Source of the DNA: Nitrospirae bacterium CG2_30_53_67
GTDB taxonomy: Bacteria; CG2-30-53-67
DNA: 61,723 nt
Direction: 5' to 3'
Assembly (NCBI GenBank): GCA_001873285.1
Contig: MNYV01000076.1
Coordinates: 1 to 61,723, forward strand
Below, one piece after another: positions 13,878 through 30,067 of the stretch (the first letter of the stretch is position 1; each line of letters begins with the position of its first letter). The notes below the pieces were generated by a model that saw only the letters and a program-made list of their open reading frames with translations, was not told where the DNA came from and searched no databases. The translations under genes were made by a program, and so were the position numbers.

Positions 13878-14894
13878 TTACCTGAACCTGTTCCAGAATA
13901 ATCCCCTCTTTTTCTTTTCATGATCTTTCAGCACAAGCGGTTCTTCCGTTCCCGCCGGGTATTCCGCTTTCTCAGTTTTTTGGGATTCAAGTTTGACGTT
14001 GATCTGCTCAAGAAGTTTCTGAATCATTTCATCCTTGAATAAAAGCGTATGCAGCTGTTCTTCTATATTCTTGATCTGCTTTTGAATCTCGTGCACGGTT
14101 CCTGCAAGGCGATCACCGCCGATTTCCGAGATCTCCTTGTCTTTGAAGGATGGCGTTGATGCCGCCTGCAAATCCCCGGCGGTCTGTTTCTCTGCCGGGT
14201 CCGCACGCGGATCATGCTCGGAAATCACCGGCGCCTCGTCTGCCGAGGAAGGTTTTTCCACTTCAGATTCCGATTCCTGAAACTCTTGAATGTCATGTTT
14301 CTTTCGGAGGTTCAACATAAGTTCTTTCGTGATCATCTTGAATGTCGGGAGGACCCCCTCTCCCGTCACTGCAACCGAGGCATAAAAGGGGACATGCCGG
14401 TGGTTGAGCCTCCGGTTCAGTTCCTCAAGGTCCATGAGATTAGGCAAATCCTGTTTGTTGTACTGCAAAACGAGAGGCATGGTCTCAGGATCCATTCCAT
14501 TGATGACCAGGTTCTCCTTCATGTTCTCAAGACTCTCCAGGTTTTTCTCCATCATCTCAACCTGCGAGTCGGCCACAAAAACCACGGCATCTGCGCCTTT
14601 GAGAACCAGTTTTCTGGTTGCATTGTAATAGACCTGTCCCGGAACCGTATAGAGCTGGAATCGTACCGTAAACCCGCGGATTTTGCCGAGATTGACAGGG
14701 AGAAAATCAAAAAAAAGCGTGCGGTCCGTGTCGGTCGCCAGAGAGAGAAGCTTTCCTCTGGTATCGGCGTTCATCTTGCTGTGGATGTACTGAAGATTCG
14801 TGGTCTTTCCGCCAAGCCCCGGACCGTAATAGACGATCTTTGCCGTGATCTCCTTATTCCCATAATTAAACAGGACCATTTTCTCCTCCTTCAC
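13878..14894 (-). CDS. MglA-family Ras-like GTPase with about 140-aa C-terminal extension
   Basis: The first ~195 aa are near-collinear with M. xanthus MglA as I recall it: KIVYYGPGLGGKTTNLQYIH, DTDRTLFFDFLP, YTVPGQVYY, VVFVADSQ, YNKQDL. An acidic, coiled-coil tail follows. Confidence 0.85.
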   Translation of the reverse strand: MKEEKMVLFNYGNKEITAKIVYYGPGLGGKTTNLQYIHSKMNADTRGKLLSLATDTDRTLFFDFLPVNLGKIRGFTVRFQLYTVPGQVYYNATRKLVLKGADAVVFVADSQVEMMEKNLESLENMKENLVINGMDPETMPLVLQYNKQDLPNLMDLEELNRRLNHRHVPFYASVAVTGEGVLPTFKMITKELMLNLRKKHDIQEFQESESEVEKPSSADEAPVISEHDPRADPAEKQTAGDLQAASTPSFKDKEISEIGGDRLAGTVHEIQKQIKNIEEQLHTLLFKDEMIQKLLEQINVKLESQKTEKAEYPAGTEEPLVLKDHEKKKRGLFWNRFR

Positions 14895-14963
14895 AACCCA
14901 TGGAGCTTGCCGTCGGCCGTCTACGGATTTGGTTGATAGATCCTTTCCATGAGAGAATGAGTC

Positions 14964-15779
14964 TCATGGCATTCCCTGACCCGGTATGCGGCTTCCTTCC
15001 TTGATCAGGCTCATGGCTTTTTCATTCTCACCGATCCAACGATAGACTGTGACAAGATGCGACCGGACGGCATTTTCACCGGGTTTCAGATCCAGGGCCT
15101 TCCGCAGATATTCCGTTGACTGATCGAAGATCCCCCTTTTGAAATAAACCCAGCCGAGGGTATCCAGCACGATGCCGTTCTGCGGTTCTGCCTTCAGAGC
15201 GTCCTTGCATAATTTCAACGCCTCATTCAAGAAGTCATTGGATTCTGCATAGGCGTAGGCCAGGTTGTTGTAGAAGAGGGGATTCGGTCCCTGAATATCT
15301 ATGGCCTTTCGAAAATGTTGAATCGCCTTTTGAATATTCCCTCGCCTCAGTTCGCAGATACCCAGTCCATTCTGAAGTTCGGCATTTTCAGGATACGGCT
15401 TCAGACCTTCCTGCAGCATCTGCAAGGCATCCTCAGTCTTTCCCTGTTTTAATAATATCACAGCCAGATTCACTCTGGCAATGAGATAACCTGAATTGAG
15501 TTCCAGCGCCTTCCGATACTGCATCCCGGCCTTGTCGATTTCCCCTTTTTTAAAATAGAGGTTTCCTAAATTGTTATAAGATCTTGGATTCCTCGGCATG
15601 CTTCGTATGATCCAAAGAAATTTTTCCTCGGCCCGGCGAAGATCTCCTTCTGAAACCAATCGGTTCGCTTCTGTAAAGACACGGTCCGCCGTTTCGTTTC
15701 CTATACCGAGTGAACCGCACCCTGAGTATAAAAAACAGAGCAGAAAAACCCTGATCATCTTCTTGGCGCAGGAAGACAT
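14964..15779 (-). CDS. TPR-repeat lipoprotein
   Basis: Signal peptide with lipobox (LYSGCGS), followed by 6-7 TPR units such as YNNLGNLYFKKGEIDKA. Confidence 0.8.
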   Translation of the reverse strand: MSSCAKKMIRVFLLCFLYSGCGSLGIGNETADRVFTEANRLVSEGDLRRAEEKFLWIIRSMPRNPRSYNNLGNLYFKKGEIDKAGMQYRKALELNSGYLIARVNLAVILLKQGKTEDALQMLQEGLKPYPENAELQNGLGICELRRGNIQKAIQHFRKAIDIQGPNPLFYNNLAYAYAESNDFLNEALKLCKDALKAEPQNGIVLDTLGWVYFKRGIFDQSTEYLRKALDLKPGENAVRSHLVTVYRWIGENEKAMSLIKEGSRIPGQGMP

Positions 15780-24643: not shown

Positions 24644-25092
24644 GGATGACGTCCCCGGCTTTCAGAAACCAGGGTTACGGCTGCTCTCAACCCGAGAACA
24701 TAACTTTCCCTGCCGAACCCCGAAATTTGTCCTTTTGCCACCGGCGCGATAAAAGAATGCCGGCGGAAGGGTTCCCTGGCATGGATATTGGAAAGATGAA
24801 CCTCTACCGTAGGAATTTCCACGGCTGCGACGGCATCCCGGATAGCGATACTGGTGTGCGTGAATGCCGCCGGATTGATGACGATGGCCTGAAATGAACC
24901 GGGCGCCTGCTGGATCCAGTCAATGATCCTGGCCTCTTCATTGGATTGCCGGGTGGTCACCTGCACACCGAGAGATTTTGCGGTCTTCTTGAGATCCCGA
25001 TCAATCTCCCGAAGGGTCAGCGTGCCGTAGATTTCCGCCTCGCGGGTCCCCAGAAGATTCAGATTGGGACCATGTATCACAAGAACCTTCAT
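24640..25092 (-). CDS. aroQ: 3-dehydroquinate dehydratase, type II
   Basis: [48 protein letters not shown]. Confidence 0.95.
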
Positions 25093-25107
25093 AAAAGCGT
25101 GTCCATT

Positions 25108-25464
25108 TTACTCGAATTCCGATGCCATGCGGGGCACCAGGATGCGTAATTTAAAACGGCCTTTACCGAGATTTCCGGTCCCGTTCAGAATCAAAGCCAC
25201 AAAATATTCTTCGTTGATCTTGCGTGCAATGGCGGTCTTTTCCCTGTTGACCATCATCATTTCACCCATGGGCCCCGTGTCCATGGATAGGGCGGCACGA
25301 TTCATTTCTTTGACAACGCCGGATAACTCGATGCCGATCAACTGAAGGTCCAGATTCTCGTCCCCGAGGTATTCTTCGACCGAAATGCCGTCCATCCCCA
25401 TGATGACGGCCCCCAATGCGCCATCCACGGAACAGACGACCTCCTTCAGCAGTTCTTTGAACAT
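25108..25464 (-). CDS. Roadblock/LC7 (MglB-like) domain protein
   Basis: 118 aa. VDGALGAVIMGMDGISVEE...EYFVALIL is a typical Robl/LC7 pattern. Confidence 0.7.
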   Translation of the reverse strand: MFKELLKEVVCSVDGALGAVIMGMDGISVEEYLGDENLDLQLIGIELSGVVKEMNRAALSMDTGPMGEMMMVNREKTAIARKINEEYFVALILNGTGNLGKGRFKLRILVPRMASEFE

Positions 25465-26327
25465 CGCTTCTCCTTTTCGTCACGGATCCGTTCGAGCCAG
25501 TTTTCAAGATGGTGAATCACGGACGTCCTGGATACAGGCCATACTTCGGCCGGAGGATATTCTTCCTCCTTTTCCTCTGCGGTTTCACGCATAGGAGCCT
25601 GCATCATCGTTTTCTTCAGTTCATCCAATCTCTGCTGATAGGTCTGATTCCAAGGCTCATCTTGAAGTAAATTCTCATAAATTTCCACGGCTTTTTCATA
25701 GTGACCCTGCCGTGCATAAAGCTCTCCGAGAGTCGGGGTATGGATCTCCCCTCGATCCGTCTGATCATCGGATTTCCGACCGGAAGGCAAACCGGCGTCT
25801 TCATCACAGGGCTGCTCCATCACTCCAGGATCACGCCCCGGTTCTTCCACGGCCCTTTCTTGACTGATCATCTCGCCAAGGTAGCGGTCATCTTCCTGCA
25901 GGTCGTCAGTTTCTTCCGGCCGTTCGGAAAACCCTCCGCTCATGGAAACCGTTTCCGAGCCGTCATCCGGATGGGCAGCAGAAGATGCAGGCAGGACCGC
26001 CGGCCCTTCTTCGTCTTTGACCTCCTGAATGATGTCGACTTCCTCAAGGAAGGCATCATCCAGGTCCATGCCGGAGAAGTTCGAATCGGAATCCACAATC
26101 TCTATCTCAACATGGAGAGAAGAGATATCGATCTCTTCAGAACTCAGTCCGGATACCGGTTCTCCTTTTACAGAGGGTTCCTTCTGATCCGCTTTGCTTA
26201 AAAAAATATCCTTTTCTATTTTATTCTGGACCTCATCAAAAAAATCCGGGCCGTTTTGTTCCTGATTCTCTTTCACCATAAGGGTTCTTTCTTTGATAAA
26301 GCAAGGAGTTTTCACAAGAAAATTCAT
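25446..26327 (-). CDS. Hypothetical highly acidic protein with one C-terminal TPR-like unit
   Basis: 293-aa ORF that is Asp/Glu-rich, with LGELYARQGHYEKAVEIYENLL. Start uncertain (26327 or ATG 26279). Overlaps the Roadblock gene start by 19 nt. Confidence 0.5.
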   Translation of the reverse strand: MNFLVKTPCFIKERTLMVKENQEQNGPDFFDEVQNKIEKDIFLSKADQKEPSVKGEPVSGLSSEEIDISSLHVEIEIVDSDSNFSGMDLDDAFLEEVDIIQEVKDEEGPAVLPASSAAHPDDGSETVSMSGGFSERPEETDDLQEDDRYLGEMISQERAVEEPGRDPGVMEQPCDEDAGLPSGRKSDDQTDRGEIHTPTLGELYARQGHYEKAVEIYENLLQDEPWNQTYQQRLDELKKTMMQAPMRETAEEKEEEYPPAEVWPVSRTSVIHHLENWLERIRDEKEKRCSKNC

Positions 26328-26457
26328 CTAACTAATTAAATAATAACAAAAAACTCTTAAAAGTCAAGGTTAAAATTTTTCTTGATTTTCATAAAAAGGA
26401 ATGCTAAATTGTCATAATATTGTTGTTCAGAATACATCAGAATCCACGGAGAGAATC

Positions 26458-27813
26458 ATGGAGCAAAGAAAAATTCTTATTGCAGATGACGACCACATCG
26501 AAAAAGAATCGTTGGCCACGATCCTCCATCGCGAGGGTTATGAAACCATCACGGCAGGGGACGGCAAGGAGGCATGGGAAAAGATACAGCAGTCTCCTCC
26601 GGACCTAGTGCTGACCGACCTGAAAATGCCTTATCTGAACGGGTTGGAACTCTTATCCGAAATCAAGGCCCATTATCCGGAAATCGAAGTCGTCATTATC
26701 ACGGGTTATGCCACGGTGGAGTCGGCCATCAACGCCATGAAGGTGGGCGCCATAGATTACATCTCCAAGCCTTTTAATGTGGAAGAGGTAAAAATCATCA
26801 TCAAAAAGACCTTGGAAAAAAAGGAACTCCAGGAAGAGAACATACAACTCCGCAAACAGTTGAAGGAGTATTATCAGTTCAAGAATATCATAGGGAGCAG
26901 TCACGCCATACAAGAGGTCGTGAGGATCCTGAAAAAGATCGTCAACGGCATGAGCCCTGTATTGATCACGGGCGAGGAAGGCAACGGCAAGGAACTTCTG
27001 GCTAAGAGCCTTCATTACAACAGTCCGAGAAAAGACCGGCCCTTTATCACCGTCAACTGCGGCGCTTTTCAGCAGGATCAGATGGAGCGGGAGATCTTCG
27101 GAGGCCCGAACGGAAAGGGGGTGCTCGAACAGGCCAACCATGGAACCCTTTTTATAGACGAAATAGAAAGCCTCCCCATTCCTCTCCAGGTCAGACTCCT
27201 GGAAAGTTTGAAGGATAACATGATCCGGGTCACGGAAAAGAATCAGCGGATCCCTCTCAACATCCGTTATATCACCGCAAGCACGGTAGACTTGGGGCGG
27301 GAGACCGAACTGGGAAATTTCCGGGAGGATCTCTACTACCGGCTTTCCGTCATACCCATATTTATCCCCCCCCTGCGGGACCGTAAAGAAGACATCCCTC
27401 TGCTTTTAAATCATTTCTTAAAGCAGTTGAACAAGGAGCATAACAAGAAAATCAGGTTCATCGATTCTGAGGCCATGGATGATCTCATGACCCACACCTG
27501 GCAGGGAAACGTCACCGAACTTTATAATGTGATTCAACGAGCCGTGATCCTGACCGAGGGCGAGGTGATTAACACGGATGTCTTCCCTGACCGCCTGAAC
27601 GAGGTTCGGGAAGAAGAAGTCCTGGTCATTCCCAAAATCCCCAAACACGGGATCAACCTGAAAGAAGAAGTGGAAAAATTCGAGACCCAGCTGATCAATC
27701 ATGCGCTCAAACGAACCAACGGCGCCATCACTTTGGCGTCTGAGATGTTGAAATTGAAGCGAACGACTCTTGTGGAAAAGACCAAACGGTTGAAGGATAT
27801 CGCAGAGTATTAA
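26458..27813 (+). CDS. NtrC-family response regulator (REC, AAA+ sigma-54-interaction-like, Fis-type HTH) lacking GAFTGA
   Basis: REC domain (ILIADDD..DLVLTDLKMP), AAA+ domain (VLITGEEGNGKE, TLFIDEI) and C-terminal HTH (ASEMLKLKRTTLVEKTKR). ATG at 26458 with a GGAGAG RBS; the track start at 26401 is over-extended. Confidence 0.85.
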   Translation: MEQRKILIADDDHIEKESLATILHREGYETITAGDGKEAWEKIQQSPPDLVLTDLKMPYLNGLELLSEIKAHYPEIEVVIITGYATVESAINAMKVGAIDYISKPFNVEEVKIIIKKTLEKKELQEENIQLRKQLKEYYQFKNIIGSSHAIQEVVRILKKIVNGMSPVLITGEEGNGKELLAKSLHYNSPRKDRPFITVNCGAFQQDQMEREIFGGPNGKGVLEQANHGTLFIDEIESLPIPLQVRLLESLKDNMIRVTEKNQRIPLNIRYITASTVDLGRETELGNFREDLYYRLSVIPIFIPPLRDRKEDIPLLLNHFLKQLNKEHNKKIRFIDSEAMDDLMTHTWQGNVTELYNVIQRAVILTEGEVINTDVFPDRLNEVREEEVLVIPKIPKHGINLKEEVEKFETQLINHALKRTNGAITLASEMLKLKRTTLVEKTKRLKDIAEY

Positions 27814-27847
27814 AGAGCGGGAAAGCCTTTAATGAAAGGAAAGATAG

Positions 27848-28861
27848 ATGAATGAACGCTGCCGACTGTCCGAGATCATAGGCGAAACACGGGGGATCAA
27901 ACTCTCCCGGCGGTTGATCACCCAGGCCTATAAGACCGATACACCGGTTCTTCTGCAGGGAGAACCGGGTACAGGCAAAGATCTGATCAGCAAGATCATC
28001 CATGATAACAGCAGCCGGGCCGGCAAGCCCCTGATCACCATGAACTGTGCCGCCCTGGATGAGGCGGCCTTGCAAAGGAATCTTTTTCATGAAGAGGAAG
28101 GTTTCAAGAATGTTTTCCAGCAGGCCCAAGGCGGGACCCTTTTTCTGAAAGAGATCGATGCGCTCCCTCTGAATCTGCAGATTAAGTTCCTGAACAAAAT
28201 CAAAAAGGATCTTTTCAAATCGACCAGCGCCCTCAATCACGTTGTGCCGCAAGCCCGGATCATGACCTCGACCGAAGACGAGTTGGAAAGACTCATCCGC
28301 AAGAAACGATTTCGGGAGGATCTATATTACCAGCTCAATGTCATTCACATCTACCTGCCCCCGCTTCGGAAAAGAATCAAGGACTTTCCTTTGCTGGCCG
28401 AATATTTTGTCCGGATGTTCAGTTCGAAACTGGATAGACATCCGCCCGAAATCTCAAAAGAGATCTATCCGATCCTTCGGTCTTATGAATGGATGGGGAA
28501 CATCCAGGAGTTTGCCAACGCCATGGAATACGCTGTAAACATGGCCGGGGAAGGGAAGCTGATCTCGGCCGAAGAACTTCCACAGCATATCCTGGAATCC
28601 AAAGGGTACGACATAGCAAACGAAATCCTCTTCCCGCAAAAAGGCATTGATCTGAAGAACGCCGTCAAGAAATTTGAACGGAACCTGATCCTTCAGGCGC
28701 TGGAACAAACCGACGGAATCATCAGCAACGCCGCGGAGATCCTGCGTGTCAAGAGAACCACCCTCGTGGAAAAAATCAAGCGGGAAAAGATCAATTCGGA
28801 ACGGTTCAAAAAACGTCGGCGCCTGCACAAGAGTCTGGAGAAAAAGAAGATCGTCAACTGA
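27848..28861 (+). CDS. Stand-alone AAA+ sigma-54-activator-like protein plus HTH, degenerate motifs
   Basis: Begins directly with the AAA+ module (IIGETRGIK, VLLQGEPGTGKD). The Walker B reads TLFLKEID. REDLYYQLNV is present, as is the HTH AAEILRVKRTTLVEKIKR. No receiver or sensor domain. Confidence 0.8.
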   Translation: MNERCRLSEIIGETRGIKLSRRLITQAYKTDTPVLLQGEPGTGKDLISKIIHDNSSRAGKPLITMNCAALDEAALQRNLFHEEEGFKNVFQQAQGGTLFLKEIDALPLNLQIKFLNKIKKDLFKSTSALNHVVPQARIMTSTEDELERLIRKKRFREDLYYQLNVIHIYLPPLRKRIKDFPLLAEYFVRMFSSKLDRHPPEISKEIYPILRSYEWMGNIQEFANAMEYAVNMAGEGKLISAEELPQHILESKGYDIANEILFPQKGIDLKNAVKKFERNLILQALEQTDGIISNAAEILRVKRTTLVEKIKREKINSERFKKRRRLHKSLEKKKIVN

Positions 28862-30067
28862 TCAGGGTTTCTCTTGAAGAAAATCCCTGCATAAACGATT
28901 GAGGATTTTTCGAGCTATTTCGCTTTTCGGCAGGATATCGGTTTCTTCCACATGCCCTTTGCGGTCCAGGATGATCACCCGGTTCTGGTCGGAACCGAAT
29001 CCGGTCCCATGGCCGCTGATATCATTGGCCACGAGCAGGTCAACCCCTTTCTCGTTCATCTTCCTTAGAGCCTCATCCATAGGATGACCGGTCTCTGCGG
29101 CAAAACCGACCAGGATCTGCCTGGTTCGCTGTTTTGAAAGCTCCTTGATAATATCCGGATTGGGCGCCAGCGCCAGGTTGAACGGCTCGGTCCCTCTCTT
29201 GATCTTTTCAGGATGGACGGATGCAGTCCTGAAATCTCCAACCGCTGCGGCCATCATCAAGATATCCGTATCCTGGAAATATCCCATAACCTGCTCCCGC
29301 ATCTCCAGGGCCGTCTGAACCTGGACATAGTTCACCCCGGCAGGAGGGACAAGCATGGTCGGCCCGCTGACCAGTGTGACGGAAGCTCCCATGCGCCTGG
29401 CTTCCCGGGCAAGCGCATATCCCATCTTCCCCGATGAACGATTGCTGATGTAACGGACCGGATCGATCGGTTCTACGGTCGGACCTGCGGTAATCAGAAC
29501 TTTTTTCCCTAAAAGAGGACCGGAGGAGACCAGAATCGTTTTAACCGTCCGGATGATCTCCTCTACCTCGGCCATTCTGCCGATCCCTTCTTCTCCGCAA
29601 GCCAGTTCCCCGACTCCCGGCTCCAGGATATGCGTGCCATACCCACGAAGAATCTCCATGTTCCTGACCACGGACGGGTTTTTGTACATTCTAACGTTCA
29701 TAGCCGGAACGATCAGGATAGGGGCGTCCACGGCAAGAACCATGGTGGAGAGGAGATCATCAGCGATCCCACCGGCCATCTTTCCGATAAAATCGGCCGT
29801 GGCCGGTGCGATCAGCATCATCTGGATATCTGAAGCCAACTCGATGTGGGATAGGGGAGACCCTTCTCCGGTTTTGTACATCTCCGTCAATACAGGAGCC
29901 CCGGTAAGGGTTTGGAGGGTGAGAGGCGCAACAAAATGAGCGGCGTTTCGGGTCATGACCACCCGAACACTCATCCCCTGCTTGATCAGCCCCCGGACGA
30001 GGTACGGGGTCTTGTACGCTGCAATCCCTCCGGTGATCCCTACCAATATTCGCATGCCGCTCAACAT
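28862..30067 (-). CDS. coaBC: Bifunctional phosphopantothenoylcysteine decarboxylase / phosphopantothenate-cysteine ligase
   Basis: MLSGMRILVGITGGIAAYK..PAMN..ITAGPT.EPIDPVRYISNRSSGKMG. Start placed at ATG 30067 (GAGGAG RBS); the track extension to 30169 reads into a repeat element. Confidence 0.9.
   Translation of the reverse strand: MLSGMRILVGITGGIAAYKTPYLVRGLIKQGMSVRVVMTRNAAHFVAPLTLQTLTGAPVLTEMYKTGEGSPLSHIELASDIQMMLIAPATADFIGKMAGGIADDLLSTMVLAVDAPILIVPAMNVRMYKNPSVVRNMEILRGYGTHILEPGVGELACGEEGIGRMAEVEEIIRTVKTILVSSGPLLGKKVLITAGPTVEPIDPVRYISNRSSGKMGYALAREARRMGASVTLVSGPTMLVPPAGVNYVQVQTALEMREQVMGYFQDTDILMMAAAVGDFRTASVHPEKIKRGTEPFNLALAPNPDIIKELSKQRTRQILVGFAAETGHPMDEALRKMNEKGVDLLVANDISGHGTGFGSDQNRVIILDRKGHVEETDILPKSEIARKILNRLCRDFLQEKP

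Follow-up and report, generated by a model that had tools for sequence, protein, structure and literature searches.

Two neighboring genes on contig MNYV01000076.1 of Nitrospirae bacterium CG2_30_53_67 (positions 1-61,723, the window) encode proteins that appear to have left the sigma-54 system from which they came. The two products, called P1 and P2 here, are best explained as lineage-specific atypical enhancer-binding proteins (EBPs) that would have arisen from a canonical sigma-54 activator and now act independently of sigma-54, with P2 predicted to be dead as an ATPase and to serve as a probable partner or competitor of P1. This explanation as a whole is held with moderate confidence. The part of it that concerns sigma-54 itself is supported by the alignments, which suggest that canonical contact with sigma-54 is beyond both proteins and show that this state is conserved. 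A sigma-54-independent role is favored because the GAFTGA-less relatives that have been characterized work with sigma-70 (PMC6158489; bioRxiv 10.1101/2023.06.06.543975).

P1 (26458-27813, forward strand, as are all features of the pair) is a response regulator of 451 residues that joins a receiver (REC) domain to an AAA+ core with a deleted L1 loop and then to a Fis-type helix-turn-helix (HTH) of the HTH_8 family, as assigned from Pfam and 15 ortholog clusters. The receiver (PF00072, 106 bits; residues 6-114, 26473-26799) has D10, D11, D54 (26617-26619), T82, and K104 in columns that are invariant among the orthologs. The core (PF00158, Sigma54_activat, 148.8 bits; residues 144-301, 26887-27360) carries a Walker A motif, GEEGNGKE, at 26971-26994 and the Asp-Glu of Walker B at 27157-27162. 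It is followed by AAA_lid_14 and then by HTH_8 (residues 405-444, 27670-27789). The linker of P1 aligns to that of NtrC1 with just two single-residue gaps. The start codon at 26458 is judged to be the right one because all of the orthologs open with MExRK at a length of 451 residues and because the predicted -10 box sits downstream of the alternative ATG at 26401.

P2 (27848-28861), with 337 residues and 18 ortholog clusters, has an AAA+ core that is both L1-deleted and catalytically degenerate, an HTH_8 domain, and a basic tail. Its Pfam matches are Sigma54_activat at residues 10-168 (128.2 bits; like P1, above the PF00158 cut-off of 20.2 bits), AAA_lid_14, and HTH_8 at residues 273-312, and the same search finds no N-terminal input domain. 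The Walker A motif (GEPGTGKD, 27959-27982) has its lysine in 18 of 18 clusters. The Fis-type HTH_8 (28664-28783) lies within the best-conserved part of the protein, and the conserved basic C-terminal tail that comes after it (EKINSERFKKRRRLHK..., 28787-28858) is invariant in 15 of its 24 columns. P1 and P2 are 37% identical to each other. The stop codon of P1 is separated by 34 nt from the start of P2, which has its own ribosome-binding site (AAAGGAAAG), and because of this spacing and the absence of a terminator-like site between them, the two genes are read as one operon. An earlier note on this DNA, made from the sequence alone, had given the same open reading frames, peptides, and domain layouts, and all of these hold. 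At the far end, the P2 stop codon (28859-28861) abuts that of the convergent coaBC gene (28862-28864), which leaves zero intergenic room for a terminator. The GC content over the P1/P2 region (26001-28000) is 0.466, compared to 0.52-0.53 in the flanks.

The GAFTGA motif on the L1 loop is needed to engage region I of sigma-54, and it is missing from both proteins. In the phmmer alignment of P1, a clean gap of 9 residues falls over the stretch 'aftgavsske' of NtrC1 (1ny5), leaving GGPNGKG (27100-27120) as the remnant of L1. In the alignments of P2 to FleQ (5exx) and ZraR (1ojl), a gap of 7-8 residues covers the same stretch, and the remnant is HEEEGFKNV (28088-28114). NtrX, a regulator known to lack GAFTGA, has a comparably short loop in the P1 alignment. 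Among the 240 proteins retrieved, the P1 and P2 clades are the only ones without a full-length L1 loop. The earlier note had put the loss in P1 at about 8 residues and had expected neither of them to remodel the sigma-54 holoenzyme. The gap lengths bear out the first point, and the second is supported at the level of the sequence, since a proper alignment places no GAFTGA-like loop in either protein.

The same loss appears in an AlphaFold2 model of P2, which was built from 21 sequences and has a mean pLDDT of 72.8 (80-93 over the alpha/beta core). The model retains the AAA+ fold of bacterial EBPs, with residues 81-88 forming a short linker between two helices in place of the L1 hairpin; the L2 region (122-133) is of low confidence. 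A Foldseek search with the model ranks NtrX first (5m7n, E 3e-20), followed by FleQ, ZraR, NifA, VpsR, and PspF.

The gaps over GAFTGA recur, and further changes become visible, when the P1 and P2 clades are aligned with 34 canonical homologs, among which are the genome's 15 other EBPs. The Walker A lysine is kept in all 34 canonical proteins, in all 18 P2 clusters, and in 13 of the 15 P1 clusters, the other two (P0132 and P0135) having arginine in its place (GEEGTGRE). The Walker B aspartate, found in every canonical protein and every P1 cluster, is replaced in the P2 clade by lysine (12), glutamine (5), or glutamate (1); in the window copy, K101-E102 (28148-28153) stands for Asp-Glu. At sensor I, the canonical asparagine (32, with histidine in 2) gives way to Thr, Ser, Ala, or Ile in the P1 clade and to Glu (17) or Gln (1) in the P2 clade, the window copies having Thr and Glu, respectively. 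The first arginine finger is arginine in all three groups. The second, which is arginine in the 34 canonical proteins, is arginine in 14 P1 clusters (histidine in 1) and glutamine in 17 P2 clusters (histidine in 1), so that Q162 of the window copy (28331-28333) turns YYRL into YYQL. The sensor II arginine, again present in all 34 canonical proteins, has become Thr (13), Ser (1), or Ala (1) in the P1 clade, with Thr at 27514-27516 in the GNVTEL of the window copy, and Gln in all 18 P2 clusters (Q220 in GNIQEF, 28505-28507). The glycines ('GG') of the L2 loop, which precedes sensor I, are gone from both clades.

P1 therefore retains a receiver with its phospho-acceptor intact, both Walker motifs (A and B), and both arginine fingers, and P2 retains Walker A with the Walker B aspartate and the trans (second) arginine finger gone. 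Neither has a complete ATPase site, since P1 lacks sensors I and II and P2 lacks Walker B, the sensors, and an arginine finger. The replacement of the Walker A lysine in two P1 orthologs hints that ATP hydrolysis may be dispensable for P1 too. Judged from the alignment, the motif changes are not due to chance because they are fixed in 15 P1 and 18 P2 clusters, and the 34 canonical comparators differ. The earlier note had picked out GNVTEL, GNIQEF, and the FLKEI form of Walker B, and each of these reappears here. Its list of lost motifs was right in every item and incomplete as a whole, having missed sensor I and the L2 glycines in both proteins and the trans arginine finger of P2.

The rest of the sigma-54 system in this genome looks intact, and P1 and P2 are its exceptions. 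The genome encodes rpoN (203 bits to Sigma54_DBD), and its 15 other EBPs score 218-255 bits on PF00158, compared to 151 bits for P1 and 130 bits for P2 in the same genome-wide scan. All 15 have a full-length L1. In 14 of them, the motif fits a GAFTGA-type pattern (GAFTGA, GSFTGA, GSYTGA, or GAFTDA), and in the fifteenth (C19), it reads GTFTGA. The NCBIfam equivalog models all fall below their cut-offs, both for P1 (AtoC 385.9 against 714, NtrX 356.8 against 600, and NtrC 337.8 against 558.6) and for P2, for which the best is PrdR at 237 against 795.

The altered proteins are nevertheless strongly conserved. A protein-database search finds P1 orthologs in 15 clusters (75-100% identity, next match 46%) and P2 orthologs in 18 (66-99%, next match 41%), and the deletion length and the substitutions are common to every member of both sets. 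The length is 451 residues for P1 and about 337 for P2 in all genomes, and the frames are intact everywhere. The earlier note had reasoned that orthologs with intact motifs would imply recent decay here; none of the clusters has them. Full synteny is found in four other genomes (L002-L005), which represent four other genera and where the order is accC-accB-efp-pepP-aroQ-mglC-like-TPR (for the tetratricopeptide repeat gene), then P1-P2 in the divergent direction, then coaBC-rpoZ-gmk-remA-yicC converging on the pair. In these four genomes, the identity to the window copies is 75-84% for P1 and 73-84% for P2, compared to 57-75% for pepP, 55-76% for coaBC, and 66-82% for gmk. This means that the pair, which the earlier note had proposed to look for in relatives, is conserved as well as its housekeeping neighbors or better.

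The GTDB phylum consists of 14 species genomes. P2 orthologs are found in 7 of the 14, all of them in the family of the window, and in 0 of 5 in the sister family. P1 and P2 seemed at first to be lost from genus g4, which belongs to the same family, but this reading was rejected in favor of an assembly gap. The two same-family genomes that appear negative are uninformative, because in one (G004) the contigs break at this place, C142 stopping 233 bp past aroQ and C75 stopping within coaBC (L016, L018), and in the other (G006) the entire P1/P2 region is missing from the assembly. The break in G004 is perhaps due to repeats such as the palindromic elements near rpoZ and coaBC.

Within each protein, the conservation is unevenly spread. 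In P2, the mean pairwise identity is 96% in the HTH region (residues 253-313, linker and HTH, with 45 of 61 columns invariant) and 71% in the AAA+ core. In P1, it is 89% in the receiver, 88% in the linker and HTH (residues 387-451), and 76% in the AAA+ core. In canonical EBPs, the AAA+ core is the best-conserved domain, which is the reverse of this pattern. Since the core is the least conserved part of P1 and P2, selection seems to act chiefly on signal input and DNA binding.

The pair lies divergent to a second operon (25108-26279, reverse strand), which is headed by the gene of an acidic protein that has one TPR unit, followed by that of a 118-residue, MglC-like Roadblock protein. This position had been described in the earlier note, and the 118-residue product (25108-25464, reverse strand) can now be named as a full-length homolog of Myxococcus MglC (PDB 7ct3, E 3.5e-20); Pfam gives no match to it even at E = 10. 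Its gene overlaps the upstream TPR gene by 19 nt. The TPR gene probably starts with the ATG at 26277-26279 (MVKENQEQ...), because the ATG of the longest reading frame, at 26327 and within the conserved promoter block, is missing in the relatives. Among the genomes searched, the operon is present wherever the P1/P2 locus is assembled (L002-L005), and, like P1 and P2, it was not found in the g4 or f2 genomes. About 10 kb from the MglC-like gene, at 13878-15779 (reverse strand), the gene of a 338-residue protein with an Arf/Ras-like small-GTPase domain adjoins multi-TPR, FecR-domain, and small protein-kinase-like genes. This cluster and the MglC-like gene may form one polarity-type module.

The state from which P1 came can probably still be seen in a relative. 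The closest protein outside the P1 clade (P0136, 46% identity; locus L019 of GCA_041486405.1) is a canonical EBP in which GSFTGA, both Walker motifs (A and B), the sensor I asparagine, both arginine fingers, and GNIRELEN are all present. Its gene is divergent from that of a TPR protein, which is followed by the gene of a 118-residue protein 46% identical to the one in the window, and no P2-like gene is found downstream of it. P0136 probably represents the ancestral, sigma-54-competent state, and this comparison makes both the L1 deletion and P2 derived traits of a single family. Since L019 pairs the TPR/MglC-like operon with a canonical EBP, the partnership between this operon and an EBP appears to predate the loss of the sigma-54 loop. 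In the maximum-likelihood tree, the two clades have long stems (of 0.9 and 1.2 substitutions per site) and short internal branches, which suggests a burst of change and then purifying selection. A tree that forces P1 and P2 to be sisters is not rejected (p-AU 0.72; 12 lnL units better than the free quick search). This result would fit a single L1 deletion in an ancestor with a tandem duplication after it; the sister grouping could alternatively reflect long-branch attraction.

Between the two operons is a control region of about 135 bp (26325-26457), defined in an alignment of five genomes, with back-to-back promoters of the sigma-70 type. The region is nearly invariant between genera whose proteins are about 75% identical, and the non-coding DNA that flanks it cannot be aligned. 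Such conservation seems to be above the need of promoters alone and may reflect embedded operators. The reverse-strand promoter (26367-26340) is predicted by a scan as TTGACT-16-TATTAT with a TG before the -10 box (10 of 12 matches), and it is TTGACT-16-TAAAAT in three relatives. The predicted forward-strand promoter, read from the sequence, is TTGATT (26382-26387)-17-TGcTAAATT, with its -10 box at 26405-26410 and a predicted transcription start near 26417. The -35 boxes of the two promoters are 14 bp apart, and the conserved 5' leader ends in CCAYGGAGA. The inverted repeat AAAGTCAAG...CTTGATTTT was considered as an operator; it is not proven to be one and is best read as the two back-to-back -35 boxes. 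An Rfam scan of the conserved 5' region returned only sub-threshold chance matches. As for sigma-54, no -24/-12 element like TGGCAC-N5-TTGC is found in 25000-29200, the matches over the whole window are at chance level, and a search for sigma-54 promoters in L019 gave nothing above chance. Thus, of the two signs of sigma-54 control raised in the earlier note, rpoN is present in the genome and a -24/-12 element is absent from the locus.

In the mechanism proposed here, P1 would be phosphorylated on D54 by an unlinked kinase, no cognate histidine kinase having been found within the window. Nucleotide binding and receiver-controlled oligomerization would then lead to DNA binding and to the activation or repression of sigma-70 promoters, as modeled on NtrX, VpsR, HupR, and the NtrC proteins of Rhodobacter and Caulobacter. 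P2, probably co-transcribed with P1 and without an input domain of its own, would bind ATP without hydrolyzing it, and its main selected function would be DNA binding. It would most likely co-assemble with P1 or compete with it for shared operators, with the ultra-conserved region of divergent promoters, between the pair and the mglC-like/TPR operon, among the likely targets. The two-component gene nearest to the orphan P1 (34438-35706, reverse strand) encodes a REC-REC-HisKA protein that ends at the DHp domain, without HATPase_c.

In AAA+ rings, a subunit lends its arginine finger to the site of the next one, which is thereby completed. A mixed ring, which the earlier note had raised as a possibility, would with alternating P1 and P2 subunits have no complete catalytic site because the P1 sites would lose the trans arginine and the P2 sites the Walker B aspartate. 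If P1 and P2 do co-assemble, the product would be a nucleotide-bound scaffold, not a motor.

Several points weigh against this reading. The promoters of the sigma-70 type drive the operon of the pair and the neighboring one, and so bear on the expression of these genes and not on the targets of P1 and P2. The earlier suggestion that the pair acts on sigma-70 promoters fits the atypical-EBP literature as well as the promoters of the locus and its lack of -24/-12 elements, but the promoters do not show the targets. P0136, with its intact GSFTGA, has the same promoter layout upstream (as read from the sequence), so the type of promoter is not discriminating. A genome scan for copies of the control-region block gave only one weak extra site, a lone near-copy of the leader block TTGTCATAATATTGTT at C106:5141-5156 with 1 mismatch in 16 (about 0.05 expected per genome). 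It lies between genes, upstream of one for a Gly-rich, lipoprotein-like product, and may be either a second target or a chance match; as evidence of a regulon it is unconvincing. The case for an interaction between P1 and P2 is made from their adjacency and co-conservation, and with rpoN present, an unconventional sigma-54 route is conceivable.

The strongest of the other explanations also has P1 and P2 independent of sigma-54 but working separately, as homo-oligomers on different operators, with P2 under control in trans in the way that PspF is controlled by PspA. This is a possible arrangement, although clearly a less likely one. P2 shares the input-less AAA+-HTH layout of PspF, whose gene stands divergent to its controller's operon, and the controller of P2 would possibly be the acidic TPR or the MglC-like product. 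The modest identity of P1 and P2 is in keeping with separate action, as are the invariant basic tail unique to P2, the strong acidity of the divergent neighbor, and the co-occurrence of the neighboring operon with the pair. However, the two genes are always found together, and their 34-nt spacing is free of any terminator, which speaks against separate action, and the TPR/MglC-like operon is not specific to P2, since in L019 it stands beside a canonical EBP with no P2.

A more elaborate version of co-assembly is that P1 and P2 form an obligate mixed complex, which would act on sigma-70 promoters as a phosphorylation-gated switch that binds ATP and does not hydrolyze it. In this strict form, the proposal is unlikely. 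The acidic TPR and MglC-like proteins might act in trans to tune such a switch, with the acidic protein set against the basic tail of P2.

It is more doubtful still that P2, and perhaps P1, acts as a poison or capping subunit in the rings of the 15 canonical EBPs or on their enhancers, damping sigma-54 transcription globally. The genome does offer rpoN and 15 EBPs with full-length L1 loops as partners, any interface joined by P2 would be catalytically dead for want of the trans arginine finger and the Walker B aspartate, and the recognition helix of P2 (KRTTLVEK) is generic for the subfamily. Yet P2 has only about 40% identity to the canonical EBPs and a long stem in the tree, so that its oligomer interfaces should have diverged, and the HTH as its most constrained part argues for a specific operator and not for promiscuous poisoning.

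That P1, P2, or both still activate the sigma-54 holoenzyme through a non-canonical contact surface is very improbable. The presence of rpoN and P1's Walker A, its Walker B, and both of its arginine fingers would allow it, but the L1 hairpin is wholly deleted and not just substituted, the L2 glycines and the residues of sensors I and II are gone too, no sigma-54 promoter was found nearby (25000-29200), and all of the characterized L1-deleted relatives use sigma-70 (PMC6158489; bioRxiv 10.1101/2023.06.06.543975). Finally, the notion that the genes are decaying relics without selected function, whether as pseudogenes or through recent decay, could appeal to the several lost catalytic residues, the variable Walker B position of P2 (K, Q, or E), and the Walker A arginine of two P1 orthologs, but it is effectively refuted by conservation, given changes common to all orthologs, intact frames, constant lengths, the 73-84% identity between genera that matches the housekeeping neighbors, an HTH identity of 96%, and short internal branches after a long stem.

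If P1 and P2 are indeed sigma-54-independent, the locus is a natural example of sigma-54 activators rewired for other work, in which one can see both the probable ancestral state and the state derived from it by the L1 deletion, the sensor losses, and duplication into a paralog with a predicted dead ATPase. The public label 'sigma-54-dependent transcriptional regulator' on both genes is probably wrong. In a candidate phylum of only 14 known species, conservation like that of housekeeping genes makes the pair a probable central regulator. Should the two proteins co-assemble, they would provide a simple system for studying the role of an AAA+ ring in transcription without ATP hydrolysis. And if the mixed switch and its tuning by the TPR and MglC-like proteins were true, a module of the polarity-GTPase type would be linked to transcription in an uncultured phylum.

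P1 and P2 have the sequence marks of atypical EBPs, namely homology to PF00158, loss of the sigma-54 contact motif, and a retained HTH_8. The characterized GAFTGA-less relatives that work with sigma-70 include TyrR, PhhR, HupR, HsfA, NtrX, VpsR, and the NtrC of Rhodobacter and Caulobacter, and some atypical EBPs need ATP binding and not its hydrolysis (PMC6158489; bioRxiv 10.1101/2023.06.06.543975). The pair is thus less unusual than the earlier note implied, as GAFTGA-less EBPs with a degenerate Walker B are an established class that includes VpsR.

Close to P1 among these is NtrX of the alphaproteobacterial NtrY/NtrX system (Brucella abortus, 5m7n/5m7o/5m7p), with which it shares the REC-AAA+-HTH_8 layout and a short, GAFTGA-less L1. 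In the search of solved sequences with P1, NtrX ranks third, after two NtrC1 chains, and it is the top fold match of the P2 model as well. It is reported to be a sigma-54-independent repressor at its own promoter (PMC6158489). However, P1 is not its ortholog, given the NCBIfam score of 356.8 against a cut-off of 600. NtrX also retains the sensor II arginine (GNLRQL), which P1 does not, and P1 has no adjacent ntrY-like kinase, just as NtrX has no P2-like partner. The losses in P2 have a precedent in VpsR of Vibrio cholerae (PDB 7v2b), which lacks GAFTGA, shows degeneration of Walker B (D to N, E to D), and activates sigma-70 RNA polymerase (PMC6158489). The resemblance is distant (127.7 bits). 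VpsR has a REC domain and a need for c-di-GMP, whereas P2 has no input domain, ends in a basic tail, and is missing sensor II and an arginine finger besides.

The NtrC proteins of Rhodobacter capsulatus and Caulobacter have independent L1 deletions, that of Caulobacter amounting to 8 residues, and they regulate sigma-70 promoters, with phosphorylation of the receiver aspartate still of importance (bioRxiv 10.1101/2023.06.06.543975). They are like P1 in their REC-AAA+-HTH layout, and the loss of 8 residues is near the 9 of P1, but they are true NtrC proteins with NtrB and nitrogen control, while P1 is an orphan in another phylum and context. PexR of Myxococcus was considered as an analog and ruled out, since it keeps GAFTGA and acts with sigma-54.

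For a pair of EBPs acting as a hetero-oligomer, the precedent is HrpR and HrpS of Pseudomonas syringae. Each of these retains GAFTGA and is active as an ATPase, and a receiver is lacking in both. They are the products of tandem paralogous genes in one operon and act together on a sigma-54 promoter (PMC3105312). P1 and P2 have the same tandem layout and occur strictly together, and they differ in that both lack GAFTGA, P2 is a predicted dead ATPase, and P1 has a REC domain. Closer to home, P0136 resembles P1 in its divergent TPR and 118-residue MglC-like operon and in its back-to-back promoters, and differs in having all motifs intact, including GSFTGA and the sensor II arginine, and no P2 gene downstream. 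P1 and P2 are therefore best placed, by sequence, as new lineage-specific members of the known class of atypical EBPs, orthologous to no named one. The features that are less common within that class are the tandem operon, an input-less and predicted ATPase-dead P2 with an invariant basic tail, and the survival of the probable ancestral state in the same context.

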